A stretch of 64,000 nt of DNA from an uncultured Candidatus Rokubacteria bacterium. GTDB taxonomy: Bacteria > Methylomirabilota > Methylomirabilia > Rokubacteriales > CSP1-6. The notes beneath the pieces were generated by a model. It did no database searches. It had not been told where the DNA came from and saw only the letters and a list, made by a program, of their open reading frames with translations. Below are positions 31,994 to 64,000 of the stretch, piece by piece. The first letter of the stretch is position 1. Every line of letters begins with the position of its first letter. The translations under genes and the position numbers were made by a program. The stretch is taken from assembly GCA_963762145.1 (NCBI GenBank), contig CAVXJS010000010.1, positions 32,001 through 96,000 of the forward strand, given 5' to 3'.

Positions 31994-32010
31994 CTGCTAG
32001 GATCGGGCCC

Positions 32011-48460: not shown

Positions 48461-50583
48461 ACGGTCCTCCCGTGATCGGTTGAACCTCGGTCGACCAGCT
48501 CCCGCGCCGCCGGAGTCATGTAGACAGCCTCGCTTCCCAGATCGCCCAGGGCCCGCGCAATGGCGCGGAGGCGATCCACCAGGGGGGCGCGCTGGTCGAT
48601 CAGCACCAGATGGGCGCCGCGCACGATGCAGAGGCCGCCGCCCAGGGCCGCCGGCGTCTCGAAGGGCTCCGTGCGGACCTCGACGCCCAGGCGCGCCGCG
48701 GCCTGGACCAGCTCGTCGAGGAGCTGCTGGGCGTCCACGGGGGCGATGGTACCCGAATTCATGAGGTCACAAACTGTGACCTCAAACGTTAGCTCGGATA
48801 CGGCCCGGATCAGGACGCGGGCTTGAGTCTGGAGCGCCTGCGCGAGCTCGTCCATGATCCACGACGGGCGCGCGAAGGAGAGGCAGAGCTCGTCCCGCGC
48901 GCGCGTCATGCCGATGTAGAGGAGGCGCCGGACCTCGTCCTTCGTCTTCAGGCCGTCCAGCTCGTGGGCGTTCAGGATCAGCACGTGCTTGGCGTCCAGG
49001 CCCTTCGAGCTGTGGATGGTCGAGACGCCGACGGTGCCATCGACCCGCTGCTCGGGCAGAAACGACGCCGGGATCTTCTGCTCCTCCAGCCAGCCGGCGA
49101 GCTTCTCCATCCCGAGCCGGTCGTGGCCCAGGACCAGGATGTCGCCCGGCGGCACGCCGCGGGCGAGCCGGGCGGCGACCCAGTCCCTGGCGTGCTCCCT
49201 GATGCCCGCGGCCGAGTCCAGAGAGACCAGCTCGGGCGCCGGCCCGTCGCGCAGCGCCTGGTCGGGCACGACCAGCGACGAGATCAGCTCGCCCGGGTCG
49301 GCCTCGGCCGCATCCAGCTCCTGCACCATGGCATAGGCCGCCGAGAGGATCGCCCTGGTGTTCCGGTAGTTGCGCTTCACGACCTTCGTGCGGCCGGCGA
49401 TCTGGATGCCGAGCGAGCGCCAGCTGATGCGCCGGCGGTAGATGTTCTGCGACGAGTCGAGCGCGATGAAGAGACGGTTGGCCCCCCGGTCCAGCGCGCG
49501 GAGCAGGAGGCGGTACCAGCTGTCCGCGAAGTCCTGGCCCTCGTCGACCAGGATGGCCTGGTAGCCGCCCGTCGGCACGCGCGCGTCGTCGAAGGCCTGC
49601 GAGAGCAGCTTGGGGACCGTCTCGACCCAGAACTCGTCCCACTCCGGTCCGCGGCCGGGCGGCTCGGAAACGTCGAGGCCAGCCGTCCTGAGCTGCTGGC
49701 GGGCCCACGCGTCGAAGGTCGAGACCTCGACGCGCTTGTCGCCGATGGTCCGGTGGAGGAAGCTGGCCAGCACGCGGTTGTAGCAGACCACGAGAATTTT
49801 CCAGTCGGGGTGCTGGTCCAGGAGGTAGCGCACGCGGCAGATCAGCACGATGGTCTTGCCGCTGCCGGCGACGCCGCGCAGGAGCCGGTGCCCATCGCCC
49901 AGGGTCCGGGCGAGACGCTCCTGCTCGAGATCCATCACGCGAAAGACGTCATCGTCCGTTGCGCCCCAGCCGATCCGGATCTCCGGGTGGAGCACGCTCC
50001 GGATCTGGTCGATCTGCTGGGCGTCCAGCCATCCGCGAGCTCCCCGGGCCGGGAGCAGCCCACGCAGGCGGGGCAGGAGCATGCCGGCCGCCAGGTCCGC
50101 GCCCGTGAGGACGAGCCCGGGGCCCAGCGCCTCCTCGAGACTGGGCCTGAAGACCGTGGGCTGGCGCACCTCCTCGGGCGTGACGTAGGGCAGGACGACA
50201 CCGGCCCCCCAGCCACACCGGAGCTGGTTGTCGGCGCAGAGGCCCGGCCGTCCCTTGAGGACGTCCACCGTGCGGAGCAGATAGTCGCGCACCTGGCGGA
50301 CGGGATGGCCGACCTCCAGCTCGCCCGTGCCCTGACGCAGCCGGACCCGGTCCGCCGTGATCTCGAGGATGCTCTTGAGCCGCCAGTCCTTGACCTCCAG
50401 GACCACCAGCCCCAGGTCGGGCCCGATGACGATGAAGTCCGGGTGCCGTCCGTCGACCGCGATGTCGTAGTAGACGAGGTAGTCCTCGGGCAGGTGGTCG
50501 CGGAGGGCGACGAACACCCGGCGCTCGCCGGCCGTGACGCGGCTGTCGAGCGAGCCGAGGGTCTCGGGGACCGTGTACGCCAC
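48457..50583 (-). CDS. NERD nuclease + UvrD-like SF1 helicase; the C-terminal ~93 aa may be a separate gene (48457-48738)
   Basis: HPDF...LEVKDW, GVAGSGKT, ILVDEGQD, NYRNT, TIHSSKGLD, LYIGMTRAR. Confidence 0.85.
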   Translation of the reverse strand: MAYTVPETLGSLDSRVTAGERRVFVALRDHLPEDYLVYYDIAVDGRHPDFIVIGPDLGLVVLEVKDWRLKSILEITADRVRLRQGTGELEVGHPVRQVRDYLLRTVDVLKGRPGLCADNQLRCGWGAGVVLPYVTPEEVRQPTVFRPSLEEALGPGLVLTGADLAAGMLLPRLRGLLPARGARGWLDAQQIDQIRSVLHPEIRIGWGATDDDVFRVMDLEQERLARTLGDGHRLLRGVAGSGKTIVLICRVRYLLDQHPDWKILVVCYNRVLASFLHRTIGDKRVEVSTFDAWARQQLRTAGLDVSEPPGRGPEWDEFWVETVPKLLSQAFDDARVPTGGYQAILVDEGQDFADSWYRLLLRALDRGANRLFIALDSSQNIYRRRISWRSLGIQIAGRTKVVKRNYRNTRAILSAAYAMVQELDAAEADPGELISSLVVPDQALRDGPAPELVSLDSAAGIREHARDWVAARLARGVPPGDILVLGHDRLGMEKLAGWLEEQKIPASFLPEQRVDGTVGVSTIHSSKGLDAKHVLILNAHELDGLKTKDEVRRLLYIGMTRARDELCLSFARPSWIMDELAQALQTQARVLIRAVSELTFEVTVCDLMNSGTIAPVDAQQLLDELVQAAARLGVEVRTEPFETPAALGGGLCIVRGAHLVLIDQRAPLVDRLRAIARALGDLGSEAVYMTPAARELVDRGSTDHGRTV
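48762..48784. promoter_or_regulatory. perfect 10-bp inverted repeat, operator-like
   Basis: TGAGGTCACA-AAC-TGTGACCTCA in an AT-richer patch. Confidence 0.5.
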
Positions 50584-50643
50584 GAGACAATCGTACCGCG
50601 GGAGTGCCGCCAGGCCCCCATCTGGCCCGGGGCCGCGGAACCG

Positions 50644-52959
50644 CTAGCCGCGCTCGGGCGATCCCGGGAGCGGCGGTGGGAGCAGGTCCAGGAGCCGTGC
50701 GGGGCCGAGCGGCATCCGCGTGACGCGCCCGCCCCGTGGCCCGACCGCGTCCTCGATCGCCGCGGCGAGCACGGCGGGGACCGCGAGCGCTCCCGATTCG
50801 CCGACGCCCTTGAGGCCGAGCGGGTTCAGGGGCGAGAGCGTCTCGAGGTGGTCGATGACCATGGTCGGCACGTCGGTGGCGGTGGGCAGCAGGTAGTCCA
50901 TGTAGGTCCCGGCCAGGAGCTGGCCGGTCTCGTCGTAGCGGATCTCCTCGAGCAGCGCGCTGCCAATGCCGAGGGCCACCGCGCCCTGGAGCTGGCCCTC
51001 GACCACGAGCGGGTTGATGAGCCGGCCGGAGTCGTGGCCGATCCAGAAGCCCTTGATCCGGACGCATGCGGAGAGGGGATCCAGCTCGACCAGGGCCACC
51101 TGGGCGCCGAACGAATAGGTGATGTCGGTGGGCTGGAAGAAGCGCGTGCTCTCGAGTCCCGGCTCGACGCCGAGCGCGGCTGTCGCGGCGCCGGCCAGGC
51201 GCGCCAGGTCGGCGAAGGTCACGCGGCGCTCGGGCCGCCGTCGGTCGGCGAAGGCCGCGCCCGCCTGCTCGAGATCGGCCTCGGGGCACCCGAGGGCCCG
51301 GCCCGCGAGGAGCCGGGCCTTCGCGCTCACGTCGCGCGCCGCGAGCGCGACCGCGCTTCCGCCCACGACCGCGGCGCGGCTCGCGAACGAGCCGACCCCG
51401 TGCTCGACACCCGCGGTGTCGCCGGTGACGACGGTCACGTCCGCGGGCGTGACGCCGAGCTCGTCGGCCGCCACCTGGGCCAGCGTCGTCTCGAGCCCCT
51501 GGCCCTGGGTGCTCACGCCGCTGAACGCGGTGATGCGCCCTGCCGGATCGACCCGCACGCGCGCGCTCTCGAACGGACCGACGCCGGTCAGCTCCACGTA
51601 GGCCGCGACGCCCACCCCGACGAGCCGGCCCTGGGCGCGCGCGGCGGCGGCCTCGGCGACGAGCGCGTCGTGGCGGGCGCTCTCGAGCGCGCGGCGCACC
51701 ACCGACGGCGGGTCGCCGCTGTCGAGGATCACGTGGCCGCTCCCGCGGTAGTTGGGCAGGCCCGTGTCGTACGGCATGTCCTCGGCGCGCACCAGGTTGG
51801 CCAGCCGCACCTGCGCGCGATCGCGCCCGGTCTCGCGCGCCACCAGGTCCATCGCCCGCTCGATCACGAAGACCGCCTGTGGCTGCCCGGCGCCGCGGTA
51901 CGGGGTGACCGGCACCCGGTGCGTGTAGCGGCTCTCGAAGCTCGACTCGACGGCGGGGATCCGGTAGGGCCCGGTCACCATGGAGGCGCTGAGCAGCGGC
52001 ACCACCAGGCCACGGGGCGTGTACGCCCCGGTGTCGTGCACGAAGCGGTCGCGCAGGGCCAGGAGGCGACCGGTGTCGTCGAAGCCGATCGTCACCTCGT
52101 GCCGCTGCTCGCGCTCCTGGGTGGCGGCCAGCATGTGCTCGAGGCGGTCTTCCAGCCAGCGAACCGGCCGGGCGAGCCTCCGGGCGAGGAAGGGGATCAG
52201 GACGTCCTCGGGATACACGATGAGCTTGGCGCCGAAGCCGCCGCCCACGTCGGGCGCGATCACGCGCACCTGGTGCGGCGCCAGGTCGAGGAGGTCGCCG
52301 ACGAACTGGCGGATCTGGTGCGGCACCTGAGAGGACGCCCACACCGTGAGCTGCTCGAGGGTGGGGTTCCAGTCCGCGACGAGCCCGCGCGTCTCCATCG
52401 GCTGGCCGCCGCCGCGCCCGATGCGCAGCTCGAGCGAGGCCACCCGCGGCGCCGCGCGCAGGGCGGCCTCGACGTCGCCGCGGGCGAGGGTCACGCGGCC
52501 GGCCAGGTTGTCGGGGATGTCGTCGTGGACCGCGGGCGTGCCCGGCTCGAGCGTCTGGGCGGACGGGAGCGGCTCGTACTCGACCTCCAGCAGCTCGCGC
52601 GCGTCCTCCGCCGCGAAGCGGTTCTCCGCCACGATCGCGGCCACCGGCTCGCCCACGAAGCGTGCGCGGTCGCCGGCGAGCGGGAGGAAGTTGCGGCCCC
52701 GCAGCTCGGCGTGCGGGGGCACGATCGGCAGCGCGCGCGCCGCGGCGCCGAGATCGGCGAACGTCACGACGTCCACCACGGCGGGATGCGCTCGGGCGCG
52801 GGCGGCATCCACGCGGACGATGCGCGCGTGGGCGTGCGGGCTCCGCAGCAGCACCGCGTGGAGCATGCCGGGCAGCGCAATATCCCCCACATACCGCCCC
52901 CGCCCGGTGAGCAGCCGCGGGTCCTCCTTGCGCAGATGCCGATCCCCGACGAACTTCAC
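50644..52959 (-). CDS. CoxL/XdhB-like molybdenum hydroxylase large subunit
   Basis: RKEDPRLLTGRG, METRG, DVGGGFGAK, PYRGAGQP, QGQGLET, KGVGESG. Confidence 0.9.
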   Translation of the reverse strand: MKFVGDRHLRKEDPRLLTGRGRYVGDIALPGMLHAVLLRSPHAHARIVRVDAARARAHPAVVDVVTFADLGAAARALPIVPPHAELRGRNFLPLAGDRARFVGEPVAAIVAENRFAAEDARELLEVEYEPLPSAQTLEPGTPAVHDDIPDNLAGRVTLARGDVEAALRAAPRVASLELRIGRGGGQPMETRGLVADWNPTLEQLTVWASSQVPHQIRQFVGDLLDLAPHQVRVIAPDVGGGFGAKLIVYPEDVLIPFLARRLARPVRWLEDRLEHMLAATQEREQRHEVTIGFDDTGRLLALRDRFVHDTGAYTPRGLVVPLLSASMVTGPYRIPAVESSFESRYTHRVPVTPYRGAGQPQAVFVIERAMDLVARETGRDRAQVRLANLVRAEDMPYDTGLPNYRGSGHVILDSGDPPSVVRRALESARHDALVAEAAAARAQGRLVGVGVAAYVELTGVGPFESARVRVDPAGRITAFSGVSTQGQGLETTLAQVAADELGVTPADVTVVTGDTAGVEHGVGSFASRAAVVGGSAVALAARDVSAKARLLAGRALGCPEADLEQAGAAFADRRRPERRVTFADLARLAGAATAALGVEPGLESTRFFQPTDITYSFGAQVALVELDPLSACVRIKGFWIGHDSGRLINPLVVEGQLQGAVALGIGSALLEEIRYDETGQLLAGTYMDYLLPTATDVPTMVIDHLETLSPLNPLGLKGVGESGALAVPAVLAAAIEDAVGPRGGRVTRMPLGPARLLDLLPPPLPGSPERG

Positions 52960-53495
52960 GCAATCCCCGCTGTACCCTCTCCCCTCTGGGGAGAGGGCAG
53001 GGTGAGGGGGCGCCCGGTCGCGGCCACATCCAGCGCAGCCTGCACGATGTGCTGGTACCCGGTGCACCGGCAGAGATTGCCCGACAGCGCCTCGCGGACC
53101 TCCGTCTCCGACGGCGCGGGGTGGAGCTCGAGGTACGCGACCAGCGTCATCAGGATGCCCGGCGTGCAGAACCCGCACTGCAGCGCATGGCGGGTCCGGA
53201 ACGCCTCCTGCAGCGGGTGCAGACGCCCGTCGCCGTTCGCGAGGCCCTCGACGGTCTCCACGCGGCAGCCGTCGGCCTGCACCGCGAACATGAGGCAGGC
53301 CCGCGTGGGCTCGCCGTCCACCAGCACGGTGCACGCCCCGCAGGCGCCGTGCTCGCAGCCGAGGTGCGTGCCGGTGAGCCCCCACTCGTCGCGAAGCACG
53401 TCCGCCAGGAGCATGCGCGGAATCACGCGCGCCCGGCGCTCGGTGCCGTTCACGGTCACCGCGATGTCGTGCGCGACGGCGCCGGGTGTCGTCAC
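52956..53495 (-). CDS. CoxS-like 2x[2Fe-2S] subunit
   Basis: GCEHGACGAC, QCGFCTPG, NLCRCTGY. Confidence 0.92.
   Translation of the reverse strand: MTTPGAVAHDIAVTVNGTERRARVIPRMLLADVLRDEWGLTGTHLGCEHGACGACTVLVDGEPTRACLMFAVQADGCRVETVEGLANGDGRLHPLQEAFRTRHALQCGFCTPGILMTLVAYLELHPAPSETEVREALSGNLCRCTGYQHIVQAALDVAATGRPLTLPSPQRGEGTAGIA
52974..53010. repeat. BoxC/REP-like element inside the coxS 3' end
   Basis: ACCCTCTCCCCTCTGGGGAGAGGGCAGGGTGAGGGGG, translated as PLTLPSPQRGEG. Confidence 0.8.
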
Positions 53496-54364
53496 GCCGC
53501 CTCCGCCCGCGCGGCCGCCTGGCCGAGCGCCCGCGCGGCCAGGCCCGCCGCGACGTGACGGCGGTACGCCGCGGTGGCGTGCAGATCGTCCCGCGCGTCG
53601 ATCTCGCCGGCGCCCGCGCGCCCCGCCTCGGCGAGCCGCGCCGGCGCCAGCCGCTCGCCGATCAGCGCCGCCCCGGCGCGCGCCAGGTGCGGCCGGTCGC
53701 CCGCGCCGAAGATCACGAGTTGCGCGGCCCGGCACACGCTGCCCGCGTCCAGCGCGAGCACGGCGCACGCGCCGACCAGCGCGAAGTCCCCGTGCCGCCG
53801 CGCCACCTCGGCGAAGCCGTGCCCGGTCCGCGGCGCCGCGGGCGCGGGCAGCTCGACCTCCGCGAGGAGCTCATCGGGCTCGAGCGCGGTCGTCAGCAGC
53901 CCGCGGAAGAAGTCGTCGGCGCGGCACGTCCGCGCCGCCCGCGCGCTCCGCAGGTGGAAGACCGCGTCCAGGGCGATCATGCAGGCCGGCAGCTCGGCGG
54001 CGGGATCGGCGTGCACCAGGCTGCCCCCGACGGTGCCGCGGGCCCGCGTCTGGAGATGCCCGATCAGCGGCGCCGCCTCCGCGAGGAGGGGCGCGGCGCG
54101 GGCCACTCGCCCGTCGCGCTCGAGGGCGTGCTGGCGCACCAGCGCGCCGAGGCGCAGCCCGCCCGCGTCCTCGCGGAGCGCCCCGAGCCCGGCCACGCGG
54201 TTCAGATCCACCACGACCGCGGGGCGCACCAGGCGCATGTTCATCATCGGCACCAGGCTCTGGCCGCCGGCCAGGAGCTTGGCTTCGTCTCCGTGGCGGG
54301 CGAGGAGGTCGAGGGCCTCCTCCACCGTCCGCGGCGCGACGTAGTCGAACGGAGCGGGCCGCAC
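53492..54364 (-). CDS. CoxM-like FAD-binding subunit
   Basis: LLAGGQSL, RGTVGGSLVHADPAAE, RRHGDFA. Confidence 0.92.
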   Translation of the reverse strand: MRPAPFDYVAPRTVEEALDLLARHGDEAKLLAGGQSLVPMMNMRLVRPAVVVDLNRVAGLGALREDAGGLRLGALVRQHALERDGRVARAAPLLAEAAPLIGHLQTRARGTVGGSLVHADPAAELPACMIALDAVFHLRSARAARTCRADDFFRGLLTTALEPDELLAEVELPAPAAPRTGHGFAEVARRHGDFALVGACAVLALDAGSVCRAAQLVIFGAGDRPHLARAGAALIGERLAPARLAEAGRAGAGEIDARDDLHATAAYRRHVAAGLAARALGQAAARAEAA

Positions 54365-54373
54365 GCGCGCGGG

Positions 54374-55279
54374 CTAGACCTTCCCGAGCTTCGGGTGGTC
54401 GAACATCGGGAGGTTCACGCCCCAGGGCTGCATCCGGGCGCGGATCTTCTTGATGAACTGCGGCACGATGCGCATCTCGTCCTCGGGCGTGGTGCCGCCG
54501 AGGCCGGCCTCGCAGGCGACGCGGTCGGCGTCGATCTCGAGCGGTGTCGCGGTGCCGCCCTCGACGGCCAGCCAGAGGTTGCGGTAGCCGTTGAACTCCA
54601 CGTTCTGGATCATCTGCGTCACCGCGCGCTCGATGTTCTTCACGGTCTCCGGCGTGAAGCTCGGGGCCCACGCGTCCAGGCACTGCCAGCCGAAGGCGAT
54701 GTGCCGCACCTCGTCGCGCAGGATCAGCTCCATCAGCCGGCGCACCGCCGGGTTCGTGGCCTTGTGGACGGTGGCCTTGAAGGCGTCGATCAGGATCTCC
54801 TCGGCGGCGCAGACCAGGCTCGCGAAGATGCCCTCGAGCGAGGTATCCGGGTCGAAGGCCATCCGCCGCACTCCGTGCGTACCAACCGCACTGACGGTGG
54901 GCGGGTTCTGGGGCTGGGGGAAGTAGCCGCCGAGGCGCTCGGCCATGAGCCAGGACGCCTCGGCGTGGCGGCCTTCCTCCTGCGTGCGCATGGTGAAGAA
55001 GAAGCGCAGGTCCGGGAGACGGTTCTCGAGGCAGAAGCGCAGGAGCAGGGCCGGGCTCTCCGAGATGGCGCCGTACTCGCCCCAGGTCCGGCGGCTCCAG
55101 TGCAGGCGCGCGGCCATGATCTGCGCCTCGGGATAGCGCTCCGGATGCAGCTCTTCCCATGGAATATCCGTCTCCGGATCCCACTCGAGCGTCTTGGCCC
55201 GCTGCCACAGCTCCCAGACGTCGGGCATGGCGGAGGCGAGCTCGAGCGGATAGCGGGTCTCGGCGAGATAGGCGCTCAT
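54374..55279 (-). CDS. ferritin-like diiron protein, complete ligand set
   Basis: WDPETDIPW, WGEY, EEGRH, AAEE, DEVRH. Confidence 0.8.
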   Translation of the reverse strand: MSAYLAETRYPLELASAMPDVWELWQRAKTLEWDPETDIPWEELHPERYPEAQIMAARLHWSRRTWGEYGAISESPALLLRFCLENRLPDLRFFFTMRTQEEGRHAEASWLMAERLGGYFPQPQNPPTVSAVGTHGVRRMAFDPDTSLEGIFASLVCAAEEILIDAFKATVHKATNPAVRRLMELILRDEVRHIAFGWQCLDAWAPSFTPETVKNIERAVTQMIQNVEFNGYRNLWLAVEGGTATPLEIDADRVACEAGLGGTTPEDEMRIVPQFIKKIRARMQPWGVNLPMFDHPKLGKV

Positions 55280-55313
55280 GACGGGATCCTCCCCGGGGTG
55301 CGTGGACGGCGCG

Positions 55314-56255
55314 TCATGCGCGCCCGAGCTCCGGATGATCGATGTGAGGCAGCGTGACGTCCCAGCCGGCGAGCCGCTCGCGCACCTGGGCGAGCGTGGC
55401 GCGGACCACCGCCTTCTCCTGGGCGACGGTGGAGGCGCCGAGGCCGTGCTCGGCGGTGAGGGCCTCGGCGGCGAGCAGCGGCTCGCGGGCCTCCGCGGGC
55501 AGCAGCCACGTGTTCCGGTAGCCGGCGAGGATCACGCGCTCCAGCATATCGCGAACCGCCGCCCCCACGGCGGCACGGCCGGCCGGGTCGAGGCCGGGGA
55601 GCCGGTCACCGAGCAACGTCCACGCGAACAGCACGTGGCGCTGCTTGTCGCCGGCCACCAGCCTCAGGATCTGGCGCGCGGTCTCGTCCCGGCTGCGCTG
55701 CAGATGGCTCAGGCAGAGATCGAGGTCGAGCTGGTCGTCGAGGGCGCCGAGCGCGGCCACCACCGCCTCCACCGACACGTCGGGATCGAGCGCCATCTGG
55801 GCGAACGGCTGGTTGCTCGCCCGCGCGACGGCCGCCCCGGGCGTCGACTCGTAGCCCCCCAGCTGTTGCGCGAAGAGGTAGCACGCCTCGAGCTGCTTGG
55901 CCTCCTCGGCGGGACGGAAGGAGAGGAAGAGCTTGGCGTCCATGCCGGCCGCGCCGGACTCCAGGCAGAACCGGATCAGCAGCGCGGTGTTCTCGCCCAG
56001 CCCCGGGTACGTGCCCCAGGCCCGGCGGCTCCACACCAGGCGCGCGGCCTCCAGCACCGCCGGCGGGTACGCCCTGGCGTCGAAGCGGCTCCACGCGATG
56101 TCGGTCTCCGGGTTCCAGCGGAACCGCTTGGCCTGGCGGTACAGCTCGCGCAGCGTCGGGTTCTCCGACGCAAAGCGCAGCGGGAAGCGCCGCTCCACGA
56201 AGCGCTTCTCCTGCGCCTGATACCCCCGCAGCAGCCGATCGCTCGTCTCCGACAT
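55314..56255 (-). CDS. ferritin-like paralogue with degenerate metal ligands
   Basis: Aligns by eye to 54374-55279 (WNPETDIAW, WSRRAWG, RFCLE, LGGY, GYRN) but has WGTY, EEAKQ, LDDQ, DKQRH. Confidence 0.75.
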   Translation of the reverse strand: MSETSDRLLRGYQAQEKRFVERRFPLRFASENPTLRELYRQAKRFRWNPETDIAWSRFDARAYPPAVLEAARLVWSRRAWGTYPGLGENTALLIRFCLESGAAGMDAKLFLSFRPAEEAKQLEACYLFAQQLGGYESTPGAAVARASNQPFAQMALDPDVSVEAVVAALGALDDQLDLDLCLSHLQRSRDETARQILRLVAGDKQRHVLFAWTLLGDRLPGLDPAGRAAVGAAVRDMLERVILAGYRNTWLLPAEAREPLLAAEALTAEHGLGASTVAQEKAVVRATLAQVRERLAGWDVTLPHIDHPELGRA

Positions 56256-56269
56256 GCCGTCGAGCCTTT

Positions 56270-56986
56270 CTATCCGCCAAGGTAGGCGGCCTTGAGCTGA
56301 TCGTTCGCGAGCAGGTCCGCGGAGGCGCCCGAGAGCGCCACGCGGCCCACCTCGAGCACGTAGGCGCGGTCCGCGAACCGCAGCGCCAGGCGCGCGTTCT
56401 GCTCCACGAGCAGGATCGTGGTGCCCGTCTCCCGGAGCCGCGCGAGCAGCTTCATGATCTCCTGCACGACCAGCGGCGCCAGCCCCAGGGACGGCTCGTC
56501 GCACAGGAGCAGGCGAGGCCGGCTCATGAGGGCGCGCCCGATCGCGAGCATCTGCTGCTCGCCGCCCGACAGCGTGCCCGCGAGCTGGCCGCTCCGCTGG
56601 CGCAGCACCGGGAAGAGAGTATACGCGGTGTCCAGGCTGGCCTCGAGGGCGCGCCGGAACTCGCGGCCCCGGGGCAGCGCGTAGCCGCCCAGCTCCAGGT
56701 TGTCCCGCACCGTGAGATCGCCGAAGATCCGCCGCCGCTCCGGGACCAGCGCGGCTCCGGCCCGGAGGATCGTCTCGGGGGCCCGGCCGGTCACGTCCTG
56801 CCCGTCGAGCGTGACCCGGCCCGCCGACGGCTCGAGCAGCCCGGCGACCGCCCGCAGCAGCGTGGACTTGCCCGCGCCGTTGGCGCCGATCAGCGCCACC
56901 AGCTCGCCCGCGCGGACCTCGAGGGAGACGTCTCGCAGCGCGTGCACCGGGCCGTAGCGCGCGGAGAGCCCGCTCACCTCAAGCAA
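56270..56986 (-). CDS. branched-chain amino acid-type ABC ATPase, LivF-like
   Basis: GANGAGKS, LSGGEQQMLAIGRAL, DEPSLGLAP, VEQN. Confidence 0.92.
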   Translation of the reverse strand: MLEVSGLSARYGPVHALRDVSLEVRAGELVALIGANGAGKSTLLRAVAGLLEPSAGRVTLDGQDVTGRAPETILRAGAALVPERRRIFGDLTVRDNLELGGYALPRGREFRRALEASLDTAYTLFPVLRQRSGQLAGTLSGGEQQMLAIGRALMSRPRLLLCDEPSLGLAPLVVQEIMKLLARLRETGTTILLVEQNARLALRFADRAYVLEVGRVALSGASADLLANDQLKAAYLGG

Positions 56987-58793
56987 CGGCGGCCACGTCC
57001 TCGCCGAGATAGACGCGGATCACCGCCGGATCGCGCTGCACCTCGGCGGGCGCGCCTTCGGCGATCTTCTCGCCGTGGTCCAGCACCACCACCTGGTCCG
57101 AGACGCCCATCACCAGGCGCATGTCGTGCTCGATGAGCAGCACCGAGATCCCGCCGTCCCGCACCCGCGCGATCAGCCGCATCATCTCGACCTTCTCGGG
57201 GGTGTTGAGCCCCGCGGCGGGCTCGTCGAGGAGGAGCAGCGTCGGCTCGGCGGCGAGCGCGCGCGCCAGCTCCACGAGCTTCTGCTGACCGAAGGCGAGG
57301 CCGGCGGCGGGCACCCGCGCGAGCGCCTCGAGGCCCACGGTGGCCAGCGCCCGCTCGGCGCGCGCGACGTGGGCGCGGGACTGCCGGCGCGGGCCGGGCA
57401 GGGCGAGGGCCGCGCCGAGGAAGCCGCCGGGATCGTCGCGCTCGCAGCCGATCATCACGTTCTCGAGCACGGCCAGGCCCGGGAAGAGCTGGATGTTCTG
57501 GAACGTGCGCGAGAGCCCGAGCCGAGCCAGGCGATGGGCGGGCAGGCCGGTCAGCGACCGGCCGCGCAGCCGCACCTGGCCGGCCGTCGGCGCGTAGAAG
57601 CCGCTGATCACGTTGAAGAGCGTGGTCTTGCCCGCGCCGTTGGGGCCGATGACCGCCTTGATCTCGCCCTCGGCCACGTCGAAGGAGCACTCGCGCACGG
57701 CGCGCACGCCGCCGAACTGCTTGGTGACGCCGCGGACTTCGAGGAGCGGTGCCGCACCGGTGCGCGGCGCGGGGAGGGGAGCCGACCGGGCGGGCTCGGA
57801 TCCGGCGGCGGCGCCGGCGGCCCGCTCGGCGACGGGCACCGTCGCGGCTGTCGCGCCGCGCACGAACAGGCCGGCGATGCCGCGCGGGAGGAACAGCATC
57901 ACGACGATGAGCACGAGGCCGTAGAGCGGCACCTCCCAGTCGCCGAAGCGGCGCAGCGCCTCCGGCAGGACGGTGAGGAGGACCGCGCCCACCACCGCGC
58001 CCCAGTAGAGGCCGATCCCGCCGATGGCCACCATCAGCACCAGCACGACCGAGAAGAGGAAGGAGTAGATCTCGGGGCTGATCACCGTGATGTAGTGCGC
58101 GTAGAGGCTCCCGGCCACCGAGGCGTACATCGCGGACAGGACGAAGACTCGCCGCTTCTCCGCCGCGGTGTCGATTCCCATCGCCTCCGCCGCGGCCTCG
58201 CTCTCGCCGAGCGCGCGCAGCACCCGCCCCACGCGCGAGTTGACGAGGTTACGGGCCATCCAGAGGGCCAGGCCCGCCACGGCCCACACCAGCCAGTAGT
58301 GATGCGTGGCGGTGACGAAGCGCAGCGGCCCGACGTCCCAGGGCAGGATGCCCGCGAGCCCGGACGACCCCCCGGTGATCCCGTGGAGCTGCGTGAAGGC
58401 CAGCTGGAGCACGAGGCCGATGCCGAGCGTGGCCATGCCGAGGTAGTAGGACTTGAGCCGCAGCGTCGGGATGCCGACGAGATAAGCGAGCGCGCCGGTG
58501 GCCACCGCCGCGATCGGCGCGCCCAGCCAGGGCGACAGCCCGTAGCGCACCGAGAGCACCGCCGAGACGTAGGCGCCGAGGCCGTAGAAGCCGGCGTGGC
58601 CGAGGGAGACCTGGCCCGCATAGCCCATCACCAGGTTGAGCCCGACCGCGAGGATGACGTAGAGGCCGGCCAGCACCGCCACGTGGACGAGGTACTGGTT
58701 GGGCAGTAGCCACGGCACCACGGCCACCATCGCCAGGAAGGCCAGGAGCGCCCGGCCGGAGACCCGGCCGGGCAGCCGCGCCACCTCGTCCAC
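56979..58793 (-). CDS. fused LivM-like permease / LivG-like ATPase
   Basis: GYAGQVSLGH permease, Ala/Pro linker, GPNGAGKT, RTFQN, LDEPAAG, IEHDM. Confidence 0.9.
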   Translation of the reverse strand: MDEVARLPGRVSGRALLAFLAMVAVVPWLLPNQYLVHVAVLAGLYVILAVGLNLVMGYAGQVSLGHAGFYGLGAYVSAVLSVRYGLSPWLGAPIAAVATGALAYLVGIPTLRLKSYYLGMATLGIGLVLQLAFTQLHGITGGSSGLAGILPWDVGPLRFVTATHHYWLVWAVAGLALWMARNLVNSRVGRVLRALGESEAAAEAMGIDTAAEKRRVFVLSAMYASVAGSLYAHYITVISPEIYSFLFSVVLVLMVAIGGIGLYWGAVVGAVLLTVLPEALRRFGDWEVPLYGLVLIVVMLFLPRGIAGLFVRGATAATVPVAERAAGAAAGSEPARSAPLPAPRTGAAPLLEVRGVTKQFGGVRAVRECSFDVAEGEIKAVIGPNGAGKTTLFNVISGFYAPTAGQVRLRGRSLTGLPAHRLARLGLSRTFQNIQLFPGLAVLENVMIGCERDDPGGFLGAALALPGPRRQSRAHVARAERALATVGLEALARVPAAGLAFGQQKLVELARALAAEPTLLLLDEPAAGLNTPEKVEMMRLIARVRDGGISVLLIEHDMRLVMGVSDQVVVLDHGEKIAEGAPAEVQRDPAVIRVYLGEDVAAVA

Positions 58794-58799
58794 GGTCGG

Positions 58800-59969
58800 C
58801 TAGAGATCCACCAGACGGAACTTGCCCTGGCGCCACTCGATCATCACGACATCGCTCTTGGCGAGGCCCCAGTGCTTCTGCGGCGTGAAGGTGAAGACGC
58901 CGCCCACGCCCTTGTACTCGCGGACGTGCTCCTCCAGCCCGGCGCGGATCTTCCCGCGCTCGCTGCTGCCCGCGCGGGTGATGGCCTGGGCCACCATGCC
59001 CACTCCGTCCCACGCCTGGCCGCCGTAGACGTCGGTCTCCTCGTTGTAGCGGGCGCGGTAACGGGTCTTGTAGTCGAGGATGGTGGCCTTGATGGGATCG
59101 GTGTCGGGCAGCTGCTCGGCGATCGGGAACTTGAGCGACGTGAGCAGCAGGCCCTCGGCGGCGTCGCCCGCCAGGGTCATGTAGCGGTCGGCCACGAAGC
59201 CGAAGCCGTGCACCAGCATCTGCTTGAGCCCGAGCTGCTGGGCGTTCTTGAGGAACACCACGCCCGCCGGCGTCACCGTCCAGCAGATGATGGCCTTGGC
59301 GTTGCTGCCCCGGATGCGGGTCAGCTGGGTCGTGAGGTCGTTGTCGCCGGGGCCGAACTCCTCGTAGACCACGTTGAGCCCGGCGGCCGGGGCCTGCGCC
59401 CGGAGCTGATCCCGCGCGCTGGCGCCGAACGCCCCGGTGTCGCTCAGCATGGCCACGTCCGTGATGCCGCGCTTCTTGAAGAAGTCGATCAGGCGCGCGA
59501 TGACCTCCACGTCATTCACGGTGGACTTGAAGACCCACGCGCGGTCCTTCACCGGCTCCACCAGCGCGGTGGCGCCGGAGACGCTCATCAGCGGCACCTC
59601 GGCCCGCTGCACGCTCGGCACCAGGGCCAGCCCGATGTCGCTGCGATTGCCGTCGCCGACGATGGCCTCGACCCCGTCCTGCTCGATCAGCCGCTTGGCC
59701 GCGAGGACGGCCTTGGTGGACTCGCTGCCCGCGTCGTAGAGCGTGAGGTCGATGCGCCGGCCGCCGAGCCCGCCCTTCTTGTTGGTCTCCTCCACGAAGA
59801 GCTCGACGGAGCGCTTCATGCGGTCGCCCAGGAAGGCGGCGGGGCCGGTGTAGGAGAAGATGCTGCCGAGCTTGATCGGGGCGCCCTGCGCCCAGCTCGA
59901 GCCGGGGGCAAGAAGGCCGGCGGCCATCGCGCCGCCCAGGGTCGTGGTGAACTGTCGTCGTGTGAGCAT
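58800..59969 (-). CDS. Liv-type ABC substrate-binding protein with Tat signal
   Basis: MLTRRQF, TGPAAFLG, NKKGGLGGR, GVGGVFTF; GGAG RBS. Confidence 0.9.
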   Translation of the reverse strand: MLTRRQFTTTLGGAMAAGLLAPGSSWAQGAPIKLGSIFSYTGPAAFLGDRMKRSVELFVEETNKKGGLGGRRIDLTLYDAGSESTKAVLAAKRLIEQDGVEAIVGDGNRSDIGLALVPSVQRAEVPLMSVSGATALVEPVKDRAWVFKSTVNDVEVIARLIDFFKKRGITDVAMLSDTGAFGASARDQLRAQAPAAGLNVVYEEFGPGDNDLTTQLTRIRGSNAKAIICWTVTPAGVVFLKNAQQLGLKQMLVHGFGFVADRYMTLAGDAAEGLLLTSLKFPIAEQLPDTDPIKATILDYKTRYRARYNEETDVYGGQAWDGVGMVAQAITRAGSSERGKIRAGLEEHVREYKGVGGVFTFTPQKHWGLAKSDVVMIEWRQGKFRLVDL

Positions 59970-60019
59970 GAAATCTCCGTGCCGCGCCCGGGTGCCGGCG
60001 CGCCGATCGAGGTGAGCGC

Positions 60020-60898
60020 TCATACCCGTTCGCTCTCGCCGCGCGCGAACAGCCCCCGCGGGCGGAGGAACAGCAGGAGCAGAAGAAGGACGAAGGCCGC
60101 CACGTCCTTGAACTCCGAGCCGATGAGGCCGCCGCCGAACGCCTCGAGCAGCCCGAGGACGAGGCCGCCCGCGATGCCGCCGAAGGTGTTGCCGAGCCCG
60201 CCGGTCACCGCCGCCGCGAAGCCCTTGAGGCCCAGCATGGTGCCCGCGTCGTAGATCGTGAGCGTCACCGGCGTCACGATGAGCCCGCCGATCGCGCCGA
60301 CCGCGGCCGCGAGGGCGAAGGACAGCATCACGATGCGCCCCACGTCGATGCCCATGAGCCGGGCCGCCTCCCGGTCGCTGGCCACCGCGCGCATCGCCCG
60401 GCCGAGCAGCGTGCGATCGAAGAACACGTGGAGCGCGACCACGATGGCGGCCGCGACCCCGAGGATCCAGAGGGCCTGCGGCACGAAGGTCGCGCCGAGG
60501 ATCTGGAAGGGCCGCTCGCCCGTGAAGGCGGGCAGCCCCGCCGCGTTCTTGCCGAGCGAGACCATGACCCCGCCCTTGATCAGGATGGACGCCCCGATGG
60601 TCACGATGATGAGGTTGAGCACGTCGGCGCGCACCGGGCGGATGATGAGCCGCTCCATGACGACGCCCACCGCGGTCACCGCGACGACGGTGACCACGAA
60701 GACCACCGTCAGCGGCAGGCCCGTCTGGGCGAGGATCGACGCGCCGAGCATTCCGCCCAGCATCGAGAACTCGCCCTGGGCGAAGTTCACCGCGCCGGTG
60801 GCGTTGAAGACGATGTTGAGGCCGAGCGCGACCAGGGCGTAGATGGCGCCGACCATGAGGCCGGAGAACAGGAACTGCAACAGGCTCGCGGTGTTCAC
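60020..60898 (-). CDS. LivH-like permease
   Basis: YALVALG, NFAQGE, GRAMRAVA, LKGFAAAVTGG, RPRGLF. Confidence 0.9.
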   Translation of the reverse strand: MNTASLLQFLFSGLMVGAIYALVALGLNIVFNATGAVNFAQGEFSMLGGMLGASILAQTGLPLTVVFVVTVVAVTAVGVVMERLIIRPVRADVLNLIIVTIGASILIKGGVMVSLGKNAAGLPAFTGERPFQILGATFVPQALWILGVAAAIVVALHVFFDRTLLGRAMRAVASDREAARLMGIDVGRIVMLSFALAAAVGAIGGLIVTPVTLTIYDAGTMLGLKGFAAAVTGGLGNTFGGIAGGLVLGLLEAFGGGLIGSEFKDVAAFVLLLLLLFLRPRGLFARGESERV

Positions 60899-60935
60899 GG
60901 AAGGGGTGCGGCGAGGGTAAGCTTGCGGTGCCGCC

Positions 60936-60961
60936 TTGTCAACGGCGGGGCTCGTTGACAA
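60936..60961. promoter_or_regulatory. back-to-back divergent -35 boxes forming a 9-bp inverted repeat
   Basis: TTGTCAACG-N8-CGTTGACAA. Minus strand TTGACA-N17-TACCCT; plus strand TTGACA-N16-GATACT. Confidence 0.55.
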
Positions 60962-61007
60962 TCCTCGGCGGGGTCCGATACTAATCGATGAACAAGGAGG
61001 CTACGCC

Positions 61008-61259
61008 ATGCCGCTCTATCTCGACGTGCACAACAAGATCAACGGCCTGACCACCGAAGGGATCGAGGACGCCCACCGCAAGGACCTCGAGTGCCAGCAC
61101 AAGCACGGGGTCAACTACCTGAAGTACTGGTTCGACGAGGGCACCGGCAAGGTCTTCTGCCTGGTGCAGGCCCCCAGCAAGGAGGCCGCGGAGGCCGTCC
61201 ACCGGGAGGCGCACGGCGCCATCGCCGACGAGATCATCGAGGTGAAGGAAGGCAGCTAG
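61008..61259 (+). CDS. DUF4242 (SCO4226-like nickel-binding) protein
   Basis: MPLYLDVH, AHRKDL, KVFCLVQAPS, VHREAHG, EIIEV; AAGGAGG RBS. Confidence 0.85.
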   Translation: MPLYLDVHNKINGLTTEGIEDAHRKDLECQHKHGVNYLKYWFDEGTGKVFCLVQAPSKEAAEAVHREAHGAIADEIIEVKEGS

Positions 61260-64000
61260 CCAGCGCCGCGGCCAGGGGCTCCATGCCCGAGCGTCTTCGC
61301 GAGCGCGAGCCCCTCGGCATAGTACCGGCTCGCCTGCTCGAGATCCGGCGCGGCGCCGCTCGCCGCGATCTGGCCGAGCAGCCGCAGGATGTAGGCCTCG
61401 TGGCCTCGCTCGCCCTGCCGCCGGGCCAGCTCCAGCGCGCGGGCTCCGAGGCGCCGCGCCGCGCTCTCGTCGCCCGCCCGCAGGTGCGCCTCGGCGAGCC
61501 ACATCAGGCGGAGGGCGTGGTTGGCCGCCCACTGCATGTCCTCGGCCCGCTGGACGGCATCCTCCAGGAGCCGGAGCCCCTCCTCGGTCCGCCCGATCTG
61601 CGAGTACGCCCGGCCCAGCGGGGCGGCGGCGAGCGGGAACAGGAACGGGATGTCGGCCACGCGGGCGATCACGAGCGCCGCGCTCCAGCGGCACGATCGC
61701 GCCCTCGTGGTTCCCGCCGAGATTGCGCAGCATGCCCGGTCCCCGCGTGGGCGACGATCAGGCTGTACGCGTGATCCTCCGCCTCGGCGAGGGCCGTCGC
61801 CTCCTCCGCGAGCGCGGCGGCCTCCTGCGCGTTCCCGCATTCCGCGGCGCAGAACGCCAGCCAGACGCGGGACATGACCGCCGGCAGGCCGGCCAGCCTC
61901 GAACAGCTGGCGCTTGAGATCGCCTTCGAGCAGCGTCACGGTGCGGGTGAGCGCCTCGGTCGCCTTCGGGTAGTCGCCGAGCGAGTGGTAGATCTGCCCG
62001 ATGCGCAGGTTGGAGAGGATCGTCCACGCGAAGTTCCCGAAGCTGGCGCTGAACGTGCGCTCGCGCTGGGCCAGCGTCAGGGCGCGATCGTACTCGCCGC
62101 GGAACCACAGGTGGCCGGCACTCTCCGCGCCGCCCATCACGCCGGCGGCGTCGATGCTCGGCTTGGACCCGGCGGAGCCCATCTCCCGGAGATAGTGCAG
62201 GGCCTTCTCCCACATCTCGCCCCGGAAGGCGTGGTGGGCGAGGCGGTCGGCGTGCTCGCTCAGCCGATCCGCATAGACGCGCTCGATGGCGCCGACGATC
62301 CGGGCGTGGAGCGCGCGGCGCCGGTCGTGCAGCAGGCTGCCGTAGGCGACCTCGTGGGTGAGCGCGTGCTTGAAGGTGTACTCGAGGTCGGGGAAGAGCT
62401 TGGCCTCGTAGACGAACTCGGCCGCCTGGAGGCGCGCCAGGCCGCTCCGCAGGTCGTCCTCCTTGTGCTCCGCGGTCTCGAGCAGCAGGCTCCACGGCAG
62501 ATCCTTGCCGATGACCGAGGCGAGCTGGAGCAGGCGCTTGTCGCCGGCGGGCAGGCGGTCGATGCGCGCGGCCAGGATCGCCTGGACGGTCGCCGGGATC
62601 TGGATCGCGCCGGGATCCTTGCCGAGCCGGTACGCGCCGCGCTCCCCGACGAGCACCTCCATCTCGACGAGGGCCCGGACGCTCTCCTCGAGGAAGAGCG
62701 GGTTGCCCTCCGTGCGCTCGATGAGCAGGCGGCGGATCGGGTGCAGCGCCGCATCGTCGCCCAGCAGCGCCTCCAGGAGCGCGCGGGCGGTGTCGGGCGG
62801 CAGGGCATCGATCCGGAGCTGCTGGTAGTAGCTCTTGTTGCCCCACGGCTGCTGATACTCCGGCCGGTAGTTGACCGCGAGCAGGATGGGCGTCGTCGGC
62901 AGGCTCTCGACGAGGGCGTCCAGCAGCGCCTGGGTCTCGGCGTCGATCCAGTGGAGGTCCTCGAAGACCAGGACCAGCGGCTGCGTGCGGCTCTCCCGGA
63001 GCAGCACGCGCTTGACGGCCTCGAGCGTCCGCGTGCGGCGCGCGGCCGGCTCGAGCCCCATGAGCTCGTGATCCTTCGGGAGCGCGTCGAGCACCCACAG
63101 GAGCGGCGGCACGCTGTCCTTCAGGCCCTCGTCGAGCGTGAGGACGTTGCCGGTCACCTTGGCGCGCACCGCGCGCACGTCGTCGTGCTCCGCGATCTTG
63201 AAGTAGCTCTTGAGCAGGTCGATCGTGGGCAGCCACGGCGTCGCCTTGCCGTACGACACCGAGCTCGACTCCAGCACGAGCCAGCCCTCGGTCCGGTGCG
63301 AGCGGATGAACTCGTAGAAGAGGCGCGACTTGCCGACCCCGGGCTCGCCCACCACCGCCACGATCTGGCCGCGGCCGCGCCCGGCCTGCTCGAGCGCCTG
63401 GCGGAGCTGATCGACCTCCGCGTCGCGCCCGACGAAGCGGGTGAGCCCCCGCGCCGCCGAGGCCTGCAGGCGCGTGCGGGCCGTGCCGACGCCCGCGACC
63501 TCGTAGACGGGCACCGGCTCGGCCAGGCCCTTGATCGGCGTGGGCCCGAGCGCCTTCACCTGGACGAACCCCTCGGCCCCGCGCAGGGTGCTCTCGGTGA
63601 TGAGGGTGGTGCCGGGACGGGCGAGCTGCTCCATCCGCGCGGCCAGGTGCGTCGTCTGGCCGACCGCCGTGTAGTCCATGTGGAGATCGCTGCCGATCGA
63701 GCGCACCACGACGTCCCCGGAATTGAGGCCGACGCGGATCTGCACGTCGACCCCGTGGCGCTTGCGGAGGTCCTCGGTGTACTGGGCGACCGCGTTCTGC
63801 ATCCGGAGCGCGGCATAGCAGGCCCGGGTCGCGTGATCCTCGTGCGCGAGCGGCGCGCCGAAGAGCGCCATGATGCCGTCGCCCAGCACCTGGTTGACGG
63901 TCCCCTCGTAGCGGTGCACGGCCTCCATCATCAGCTCGAGCACCGGATCGATGATCCGCCGCGCCTCCTCCGGATCCCGGTCCGCGAGCAGCTCCATCGA
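61256..64000 (-). CDS. class III adenylate/guanylate cyclase + AAA (STAND) ATPase + TPR protein; 5'-truncated, frameshifts near 61720-61900
   Basis: GDGIMALFGAP, RVGLNSG, TTHLAARME, GEPGVGKS, FEDLHW, EGNPLFLEE, FKHAL. Confidence 0.9.
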   Translation of the reverse strand, partial: SMELLADRDPEEARRIIDPVLELMMEAVHRYEGTVNQVLGDGIMALFGAPLAHEDHATRACYAALRMQNAVAQYTEDLRKRHGVDVQIRVGLNSGDVVVRSIGSDLHMDYTAVGQTTHLAARMEQLARPGTTLITESTLRGAEGFVQVKALGPTPIKGLAEPVPVYEVAGVGTARTRLQASAARGLTRFVGRDAEVDQLRQALEQAGRGRGQIVAVVGEPGVGKSRLFYEFIRSHRTEGWLVLESSSVSYGKATPWLPTIDLLKSYFKIAEHDDVRAVRAKVTGNVLTLDEGLKDSVPPLLWVLDALPKDHELMGLEPAARRTRTLEAVKRVLLRESRTQPLVLVFEDLHWIDAETQALLDALVESLPTTPILLAVNYRPEYQQPWGNKSYYQQLRIDALPPDTARALLEALLGDDAALHPIRRLLIERTEGNPLFLEESVRALVEMEVLVGERGAYRLGKDPGAIQIPATVQAILAARIDRLPAGDKRLLQLASVIGKDLPWSLLLETAEHKEDDLRSGLARLQAAEFVYEAKLFPDLEYTFKHALTHEVAYGSLLHDRRRALHARIVGAIERVYADRLSEHADRLAHHAFRGEMWEKALHYLREMGSAGSKPSIDAAGVMGGAESAGHLWFRGEYDRALTLAQRERTFSASFGNFAWTILSNLRIGQIYHSLGDYPKATEALTRTVTLLEGDLKRQLFEAGRPAGGHVPRLAGVLRRGMRERAGGRRARGGGDGPRRGGGSRVQPDRRPRGDRACCAISAGTTRARSCRWSAALVIARVADIPFLFPLAAAPLGRAYSQIGRTEEGLRLLEDAVQRAEDMQWAANHALRLMWLAEAHLRAGDESAARRLGARALELARRQGERGHEAYILRLLGQIAASGAAPDLEQASRYYAEGLALAKTLGHGAPGRGAG

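Follow-up and report, generated by a model that had tools for sequence, protein, structure and literature searches.

A candidate catabolic operon of a Candidatus Rokubacteria bacterium that encodes a putative diiron enzyme and its ligand-deficient paralogue beside an ABC importer and a molybdenum hydroxylase

What might a ferritin-like diiron protein do when it is encoded next to a ligand-deficient copy of itself, between the genes of an importer and those of a molybdenum (Mo) hydroxylase? The question is raised by a locus in the window, by which we mean the whole 64,000-nucleotide stretch analysed here, taken from positions 32,001 to 96,000 of contig CAVXJS010000010.1 (assembly GCA_963762145.1) of an uncultured Candidatus Rokubacteria bacterium. 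In this locus the open reading frame (ORF) listing gives nine co-oriented ORFs, which form one tightly packed operon on the minus strand from window position 60961 to 50644, in the order livH, livK, a livM-livG fusion, livF, ferB, ferA, coxM, coxS and coxL. An earlier note, made from the letters of this DNA, had described a single operon holding a diiron enzyme and pseudo-enzyme pair, and had suggested that the Mo hydroxylase CoxMSL may feed electrons directly to the diiron enzyme. Our analysis bears out the operon and the pair but lends no support to the electron transfer. We would give roughly even chances to the reading that this is a catabolic operon in which an O2-activating A/B (FerA/FerB) pair, together with a lineage-specific Cox step, acts on an imported compound. 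Across the related loci, the fer pair forms the conserved core, most commonly accompanied by the importer, and the Mo hydroxylase is confined to one lineage.

FerA and FerB are paralogous and align along their full length with 36% identity (E 2e-62). Across 46 aligned homologues, the invariant residues of FerA are E68, E101/E102, H105, E160/E161, E190 and H193, and these give the E...ExxH...E...ExxH signature of diiron-carboxylate proteins, the ligand motifs being E68, E102-x-x-H105, E160/E161 and E190-x-x-H193. FerB departs from this ligand set at E68T, H105Q, E160D, E161Q and E190K. The same division runs through the family. Scanning a single genome of each species gave 150 confirmed loci; the analysis used the best 80 of them (L004-L083), and the ligand columns were read in 155 sequences, comprising 153 family members from these 80 loci and the two window proteins. 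The full set is present in 84 of them and incomplete in 71; E190 is replaced by K, R or Y in every one of the incomplete sequences (71/71), and both E160 and E161 are gone in 69 of these. The claim of an enzyme and pseudo-enzyme pair therefore stands, with A ligand-complete and B ligand-deficient in all 71 B-type sequences. Furthermore, in a maximum-likelihood tree of 153 near-full-length family sequences, a single branch (SH-aLRT 100) parts 83 A-type from 70 B-type rows. Because one supported branch separates them, the degenerate partner would have arisen once, before the family spread across phyla, and been kept since, and the A/B split is, as judged from the tree, one ancient duplication. 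Seven loci (L040, L041, L042, L043, L046, L047 and L052) carry three fer paralogues in tandem, two ligand-complete A-type and one B-type. Apparent fused A+B forms (P0170, P0271-P0273) were rejected, because in them the reading runs from one gene of the A and B pair into its neighbour through a garbled linker. Likewise, no fusion of the fer pair to a reductase or ferredoxin domain was found among the long homologues (613-716 aa), 3/3 of which are garbled A+B read-throughs.

Existing family models leave both proteins unplaced. AurF (PF11583) is the sole Pfam family with E <0.001 for FerA, at 20.0 bits against a cutoff of 29.6 and so below the gathering threshold, and FerB scores 12.2 bits against it; FerB has no match in Pfam or NCBIfam, and FerA none in NCBIfam. 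The Pfam model PF00268 (Ribonuc_red_sm) gives 13.3 bits against a cutoff of 33.6, and PaaA_PaaC (PF05138) does not match the pair even at E 10. A profile search of 1.84 billion representative proteins returned 924 at E <=1e-3, 211 at <=1e-10 and 71 at <=1e-30, and among 5.8 billion clustered proteins 379 matched, named only 'hypothetical protein', 'ferritin-like domain-containing protein' or 'rubrerythrin'. Against the solved structures, the family profile found no sequence homologue, its matches being short and limited to an ExxH helix in designed bundles, EncC and bacterioferritin; around the fer family the ESM Atlas holds only 'ferritin-like' or 'hypothetical' clusters. None of these named homologues, solved structures or Atlas clusters includes a functionally characterised member of the family. 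In a plasmid collection, four records match the fer pair, one of them closely, on a Paraburkholderia megaplasmid that carries no annotation in that collection.

The predicted fold is more informative. AlphaFold confidently models FerA as a helical bundle of the R2 kind (predicted local distance difference test, pLDDT, 87.6; predicted template modelling score, pTM, 0.86), and the top Foldseek matches of this model are the R2 subunit of ribonucleotide reductase (RNR) and R2-like ligand-binding oxidases (R2lox), with E from 2.5e-5 and TM-scores of 0.5-0.6. In fold alignments against representatives, the best match is 6d9f, which is aldehyde-deformylating-oxygenase-like (ADO-like; Z 20.4, root-mean-square deviation, rmsd, 3.2 over 257 residues), followed by R2lox (Z 19.5), RNR R2 (about 18.7), the alpha subunit of soluble methane monooxygenase (sMMO; 18.6) and PaaA (15.9; rmsd 3.6 over 230 residues), with BoxB at 13.1. 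The matches at Z 20.4-15.9 span residues 6-299, and by this measure the FerA model has the R2/ferritin fold. CmlI (Z 13.4) and AurF (Z 12.7) lie in a range that helical bundles can reach by chance, and ferritin-type 24-mers score about 10-11. The AurF/CmlI N-oxygenases have an additional His ligand in a 3-His/4-carboxylate site; in FerA a further invariant residue, H135, sits in a lower-confidence loop (pLDDT 61-70).

Modelling of the A/B complex, which the earlier note had named as a check, predicts a heterodimer. With an alignment given for each input, the A+B prediction reaches an interface score (ipSAE) of 0.94, compared with 0.01 for the best of three controls, and so passes the mark set for this score, a mark that is attained by 58 of 80 solved complexes and by 2 of 110 mismatched pairs. 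The runs share at least 94% of their contacts, partner pLDDT is at least 93, and the predicted interface uses the same pair of long helices as RNR R2/R2lox-type dimers.

The genes of the operon are as follows, all on the minus strand and with Pfam matches in brackets where there are any.

60020..60961, minus strand: livH-type ABC (ATP-binding cassette) permease (PF02653 BPD_transp_2, 3.8e-35)
58800..60023, minus strand: LivK-type periplasmic binding protein with a twin-arginine motif (PF13458 Peripla_BP_6, 5.3e-58)
56979..58793, minus strand: livM-livG fusion, permease plus ATPase, 604 aa (BPD_transp_2 6.6e-45, ABC_tran 7e-31)
56270..56986, minus strand: livF-type ATPase (ABC_tran 9.4e-33)
55314..56255, minus strand: ferB, ligand-deficient ferA paralogue, 313 aa, predicted non-catalytic partner
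54374..55279, minus strand: ferA, R2/ferritin-like diiron-carboxylate subunit with a complete ligand set, 301 aa
53492..54364, minus strand: coxM-type flavin adenine dinucleotide (FAD) subunit (FAD_binding_5 1.7e-46, CO_deh_flav_C 7.6e-17)
52956..53495, minus strand: coxS-type 2x[2Fe-2S] subunit (Fer2_2 1.1e-31, Fer2 1.1e-07)
50644..52959, minus strand: coxL-type molybdopterin subunit, not form I carbon monoxide (CO) dehydrogenase (Ald_Xan_dh_C, MoCoBD_1, MoCoBD_2)

On the importer side, livH and livK overlap in ATGA, livK and livMG are 6 nt apart, livMG and livF overlap by 8 nt, and 14 nt separate livF from ferB. Gaps of 34 nt (ferB/ferA) and 9 nt (ferA/coxM) follow, and then GTGA overlaps at coxM/coxS and coxS/coxL. 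As there are only overlaps or gaps of 6-34 nt, a hidden ferredoxin, reductase or other gene between the operon genes is impossible, and the Pfam matches and junctions agree with the earlier claim that neither a ferredoxin nor an NAD(P)H reductase has a separate gene in the operon. The start of livH may lie at either of two positions, a GTG at 60898 being in frame 21 codons inside the longest ORF. In the livM-livG fusion, BPD_transp_2 covers residues 35-301, ABC_tran 367-526 and BCA_ABC_TP_C 575-600. The gene order recurs in other assemblies, with all nine genes in L010, livH to ferA in L035 and livF to coxL in L008; it is therefore not a chance juxtaposition, and the locus is confirmed as one genuine operon. 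The cluster of the livM-livG fusion is also seen in L010, L014, L021, L025, L035 and L045.

The surroundings of the operon, where G+C content is 70-77%, give few further clues. The genes on either side are unrelated to it. Downstream lies a NERD-UvrD helicase gene. Directly upstream, on the same strand, is a gene for an adenylate/guanylate cyclase-AAA_16-TPR protein (61256-64000, minus strand) that runs off the window and for which a regulatory role is possible. Beyond the helicase gene, about 2 kb past the cox genes, there is a 221-aa SBP_bac_11 ORF (47707-48372, minus strand), of a family that takes in molybdate-type binders; a link to Mo supply is conceivable. An Rfam scan of 50000-62000 found no riboswitch, its sole match being at E 0.94, and a promoter and terminator scan of the operon region gave nothing convincing. 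The source assembly (6.26 Mb, 88% complete) has the fer pair once. Among public sequencing runs, the window stretch is detected in soil metagenomes of 10 studies, and no RNA run is listed as containing it.

How firmly the three parts of the operon belong together can be judged from the related loci, which were mapped by tblastn with the nine window proteins; heuristic gene calls were clustered, and recurrent clusters were annotated with Pfam. The first group (a), 36 of the 80 loci with ferA 82-98% identical, is labelled Methylomirabilota or Rokubacteria, with a few records labelled Binatia, Dormiibacterota, Verrucomicrobiia or unclassified. Nine of the 36 have ferB-ferA-coxM-coxS(-coxL), as in the window, and 21 have ferB-ferA-coxL with a CoxL about 70% identical and no coxM or coxS match in the locus, so that ferA is followed by cox genes in 30, at gaps of 9-13 nt. 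In the remainder, L016, L019 and L020 have no cox gene, two loci end at the fer pair, and in L011 (6315-8518, plus strand) a Gluconate_2-dh3-like protein and a GMC oxidoreductase come directly after the fer pair, in the position of coxMSL. Among the 23 group (a) loci with at least 3.5 kb downstream, an orthologous coxL is present in 20 and coxM plus coxS in 7, those of L018 lying in a separate upstream cox cluster. A Liv operon (at least 40% identity) is present in 3 of the 12 group (a) loci with at least 5 kb on both sides. L016 and L020 have a second Liv-type cluster after the fer pair (L016:10978-17550; L020:11333-18307).

The second group (b), 44 of the 80 loci with ferA 47-52% identical, belongs to Alpha-, Beta- and Gammaproteobacteria plus one Acidimicrobiales, with Variovorax, Ottowia, Comamonas badia, Paraburkholderia and Achromobacter as cultured carriers. 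No cox gene of any kind occurs within 10 kb in these loci (0/44; 0/39 of those with at least 3.5 kb downstream), and in five proteobacterial genomes carrying the fer pair the best CoxL identity is only 31-42%. The typical map is a divergent 429-aa gene, a GntR/UTRA regulator (19/44 loci), livK, ferA, ferB, livH, livM, livG and livF, followed in 22 loci by an Abhydrolase_3 esterase or in 10 by an amidase-signature enzyme; further genes encode RidA (14 loci), a second esterase (8), an AMP-ligase (7) and an acyl-CoA (coenzyme A) dehydrogenase (6, a seventh locus being Methylomirabilota-type). Of the 32 group (b) loci with at least 5 kb on both sides, 28 have Liv orthologues (at least 40% identity) beside or around the fer pair. 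The LivK homologues of Variovorax defluvii and Ottowia thiooxydans are 43-52% identical to that of the window. In two gammaproteobacterial loci, an SBP_bac_5 binder, a large alpha/beta hydrolase and a GMC oxidoreductase replace the Liv genes, and in L075 and L076 a GMC oxidoreductase alone lies downstream of the pair (L075:11440-13083, plus strand). These replacements suggest that the dehydrogenase partners of the fer pair are interchangeable. Neither group has a ferredoxin or flavin reductase among its recurrent neighbour clusters. The divergent 429-aa gene (L082:6398-7687, minus strand) is an Ala/Leu-rich ORF whose homologues occur in 20 proteobacterial loci; neither Pfam nor NCBIfam matches it, its Atlas neighbours are only 'hypothetical', and it was not found in the window's genome.

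Together, these observations favour the reading of a catabolic operon with which we began. Judged from its proteins' sequences, the operon encodes a Liv/HAAT-type importer with a Tat-motif (twin-arginine translocation) binding protein, an anciently duplicated R2/ferritin-like pair in which A is ligand-complete and B ligand-deficient, and a three-subunit hydroxylase with Mo, iron-sulphur (FeS) and FAD centres from the CoxL/quinoline-oxidoreductase/Kdh group. FerA and FerB would form a heterodimer, with A as the O2-activating catalytic subunit and B as its structural partner, as in PaaA/PaaC, and this pair would oxidise the imported compound, or a near derivative of it, which is probably an organic acid, perhaps with an aromatic or N-heteroaromatic ring. 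The same carbon skeleton would be the target of CoxMSL in an adjoining step, either a hydroxylation with water or the oxidation of an aldehyde. Cox would be an accessory module specific to this lineage, and in other lineages a GMC dehydrogenase, or esterase, amidase and RidA steps, would stand in its place. Since the pair occurs without Cox in most lineages and with no dedicated reductase, it presumably draws on general cellular reductants or needs none. Any reductant for the diiron site would come from the general cellular pool, as with AurF-type and aldehyde-deformylating enzymes, which are not known to have a dedicated reductase.

The importer gives the first hints of what the compound might be. 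Two BPD_transp_2 permeases, two ABC ATPases and a Peripla_BP_6 binder identify it by Pfam as a Liv/HAAT ABC importer. Its LivF gives 264 bits against NCBIfam NF008626 (LivF), under the cutoff of 441. LivK begins with LTRRQFTTT, which we take to be a Tat signal motif, and then has a hydrophobic stretch and AQG. A LivJ/LivK branched-chain specificity is not indicated by NCBIfam (NF011933 72.3 against a cutoff of 477; UrtA 49.8 against 493), and the E. coli Leu/Ile/Val binders match LivK at about 1e-13 only. The best solved relatives are 3sg0, 4dqd and 7ylt (4e-33 to 2.5e-29), and Rhodopseudomonas proteins of the 4fb4 type also match. A full-text search linked 7YLT to a paper on the Variovorax auxin operon (PMC10374108), and we infer that 7YLT is IadK2. 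That paper reports a crystal structure for IadK2 and places this binding protein, which is specific for indole-3-acetate, in the B-III subcluster; it describes this subcluster as 'usually associated with' aromatic-acid uptake and gives 4FB4, a caffeic acid complex, as the closest structural relative of IadK2 (PMC10374108). The earlier guess of an N-heterocyclic or aromatic substrate thus fits the relatives of the binder and of CoxL, as weak hints. AMP-ligase, acyl-CoA dehydrogenase and MaoC genes occur near some fer pairs, and these neighbours, taken with the binder and the CoxL relatives, would fit an organic, perhaps (hetero)aromatic, carboxylic acid.

The proteobacterial neighbours, namely esterase, amidase and RidA, point to an ester, amide or enamine intermediate. 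They lend themselves to an alternative in which the A/B pair is an oxidase or desaturase and not a hydroxylase. The imported compound, an amine or a molecule resembling an amino acid, would become an imine or enamine, RidA would hydrolyse this product, and the resulting carbonyl would be oxidised by Cox or GMC enzymes. The RidA genes of 14 loci and the amidases of 10 would fit such a route, as would an importer of the Liv type, and acyl-ACP (acyl carrier protein) desaturase clusters are among the ESM Atlas feature neighbours with scores of 0.93. However, the window operon has no RidA, the RidA homologues of its genome are at most 43% identical and unlinked, and LivK is closer to aromatic-acid than to amino-acid binders. 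We consider this route unlikely, although it survives better than the other alternatives.

The ligase genes raise another alternative, in which the A/B pair, as an epoxidase or hydroxylase of the PaaAC or BoxB kind, would take the imported acid in the form of its CoA thioester and not as the free compound. The architecture of a catalytic subunit with a ligand-less partner is PaaA/PaaC-like, and the fold matches to PaaA and BoxB described above are consistent with it. Furthermore, AMP-ligase and acyl-CoA dehydrogenase clusters occur in seven loci each, an AMP-ligase adjoins the pair in L016, and a MaoC-type gene follows coxL in L013. The second Liv-type cluster of L016 embeds a 601-aa AMP-binding acyl-CoA ligase, and L020 has a 601-aa homologue assigned by clustering only; these ligases are hints of carboxylic-acid substrates. 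Yet a CoA ligase is absent from the window operon and from most loci, no PaaE- or BoxA-type reductase is present, and PF05138 is silent on the pair, as noted, so that we rate a thioester substrate as decidedly improbable.

What, then, is the part of the Mo hydroxylase? All CoxMSL domains score over their Pfam cutoffs and place the enzyme among the xanthine dehydrogenase/CoxL Mo hydroxylases. CoxL stays under every NCBIfam equivalog cutoff (NF040766 784.8 against 950; TIGR02416 512.5 against 991), and an identity as form I aerobic CO dehydrogenase was rejected on these scores. Its active-site loop reads PYRGAGQ and has no Cys; a Cys-containing loop is a form I feature. The closest solved relatives are about equally close: 8uem, a CoxL annotated as CO dehydrogenase large chain (about 1e-150), 1t3q, quinoline 2-oxidoreductase (about 1e-150), and 7dqx, 6-hydroxypseudooxynicotine dehydrogenase (about 1e-143).

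The earlier note had proposed that this enzyme may be the electron donor of the pair. Spelled out further, such a scheme would have CoxMSL, or CoxL alone, hydroxylate the substrate with water, dock on A/B and pass its two electrons directly to the diiron site for an O2-dependent second hydroxylation, in a reductase-free cascade. The tight ferA-cox spacing in 30 of 36 Methylomirabilota-type loci and the lack of a reductase gene, both in the operon and in the recurrent neighbourhoods of the family, speak for it, and the 21 loci with coxL alone after ferA make an unusual partner of CoxL conceivable. The note had also fixed beforehand what would tell against it, namely homologous pairs that usually occur without coxMSL, and for the family as a whole this is what the neighbour tabulation found: in 44 of the 80 loci no cox gene lies within 10 kb of the pair, a CoxL orthologue is missing from five such genomes, and only 9 of the 36 others have coxMSL. 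Moreover, a GMC dehydrogenase takes the partner's place in L011, L075 and L076. Nor is coxL alone beside ferA special, as orphan coxL genes are usual in these genomes. Indeed, CoxL matches outnumber CoxS matches by 39 to 15 in G006 (the genome of L037) and by 51 to 12 in G007 (that of L014), and over 400 kb of contig separates the fer-linked coxL of G006 from the nearest coxS match; with orphan coxL genes so commonplace in Rokubacteria-type genomes, a coxL without coxS beside ferA needs no special explanation. Given the pairs without Cox and the GMC replacement, Cox is parsimoniously a neighbouring oxidation step and not the diiron reductase, and we regard direct electron transfer as very unlikely.

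That the fer pair is an iron-storage or peroxide-detoxifying protein of the ferritin or rubrerythrin kind, co-transcribed by happenstance, is extremely improbable: some homologues are named 'rubrerythrin' and one from Achromobacter has weak Rubrerythrin and Ferritin Pfam matches (E 1e-3 to 3e-3), but the 300-aa subunits are R2-sized, their best folds are enzymes and not 24-mer ferritins (Z 20 against about 10-11), one subunit is obligatorily ligand-dead, and the pair is embedded in transporter or catabolic operons in three or more phyla.

Several points weigh against the reading of an A/B oxygenase with an accessory Cox step. The oxygenase activity would follow from fold and ligands alone, and the A-B prediction may reflect a memory of the solved R2 homodimer interface. 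LivK is about 30% identical to 7YLT, which is too low to fix the ligand. The proteobacterial neighbours (esterase, amidase, RidA and the 429-aa protein) are without close counterparts in the window's genome; searches of this 88% complete genome for these four and for GntR and GMC gave distant or unlinked matches or none, and the pathway may differ between lineages. Finally, the tight ferA-cox linkage of the 30 group (a) loci would also fit physical or electronic coupling.

The interest of the fer family reaches beyond this operon. The family is small, yet bacteria of several phyla, from soil, groundwater, sludge and the sea, conserve it as a catalytic subunit with a dead partner, and every locus examined has it inside a gene cluster for uptake or catabolism. 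Naming its substrate would add a new reaction to the repertoire of diiron oxygenases and annotate a recurrent unknown of abundant uncultured soil phyla; the cultured carriers Variovorax, Ottowia (O. thiooxydans DSM 14619), Comamonas badia (DSM 17552) and Paraburkholderia make the pair directly testable. If the Mo-to-diiron wiring were true, it would be a self-sufficient, NAD(P)H-free machine for a two-step hydroxylation and a new class of electron donor for ferritin-like oxygenases.

How does the operon compare with known systems? In the papers covered by literature searches, no described pathway with its arrangement was found, in line with the earlier note; searches on a ferritin-like or diiron pair with a Mo hydroxylase, CoxL, an ABC transporter or amidase, Rokubacteria or an inactive subunit found nothing relevant. 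On the side of the Mo hydroxylase, quinoline 2-oxidoreductase, 6-hydroxypseudooxynicotine dehydrogenase and form II CoxL have the same three-subunit Mo/FeS/FAD architecture as CoxMSL. The quinoline and nicotinate pathways couple a Mo hydroxylase step with a subsequent O2-dependent oxygenase step, but there the oxygenase, a Rieske or flavin enzyme, has a reductant supply of its own and is not a ferritin-like pair.

On the side of the diiron protein, the soluble diiron monooxygenases differ in that the fer operon lacks Phenol_Hydrox, reductase and coupling-protein domains, which sets it outside that group, and the sMMO alpha match at Z 18.6 reflects the shared core only. The AurF/CmlI and ADO-like enzymes are stand-alone diiron oxygenases with no known dedicated reductase gene, and they resemble FerA in that 6d9f is the top fold match and AurF the best, sub-threshold, Pfam family. 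However, FerA falls short of the PF11583 gathering threshold and so outside the AurF family, and its fold scores against AurF and CmlI are only Z 12.7-13.4; these enzymes are not known to have a degenerate paralogous partner. RNR R2 and R2lox are the best Foldseek matches to FerA and use the same pair of long helices as the predicted A-B interface, and yeast Rnr4 is a ligand-deficient partner of Rnr2. Nevertheless, the RNR R2 Pfam score is below its cutoff, no RNR large subunit lies near the fer pair, and the fer context is catabolic.

The closest likeness in architecture is to PaaA/PaaC, in which PaaC is the metal-ligand-deficient paralogous partner of PaaA. Both systems join a ferritin-like diiron catalytic subunit to a ligand-less paralogue in a catabolic setting, and the heterodimer is matched on the fer side by the predicted complex. 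The fer operon differs in being without PF05138, paaB, paaD, paaE (the reductase) and a CoA ligase, and is thus no member of the PaaA/PaaC family. The fer family itself is uncharacterised, and the degenerate-partner architecture that it displays is one already known from PaaA/PaaC.

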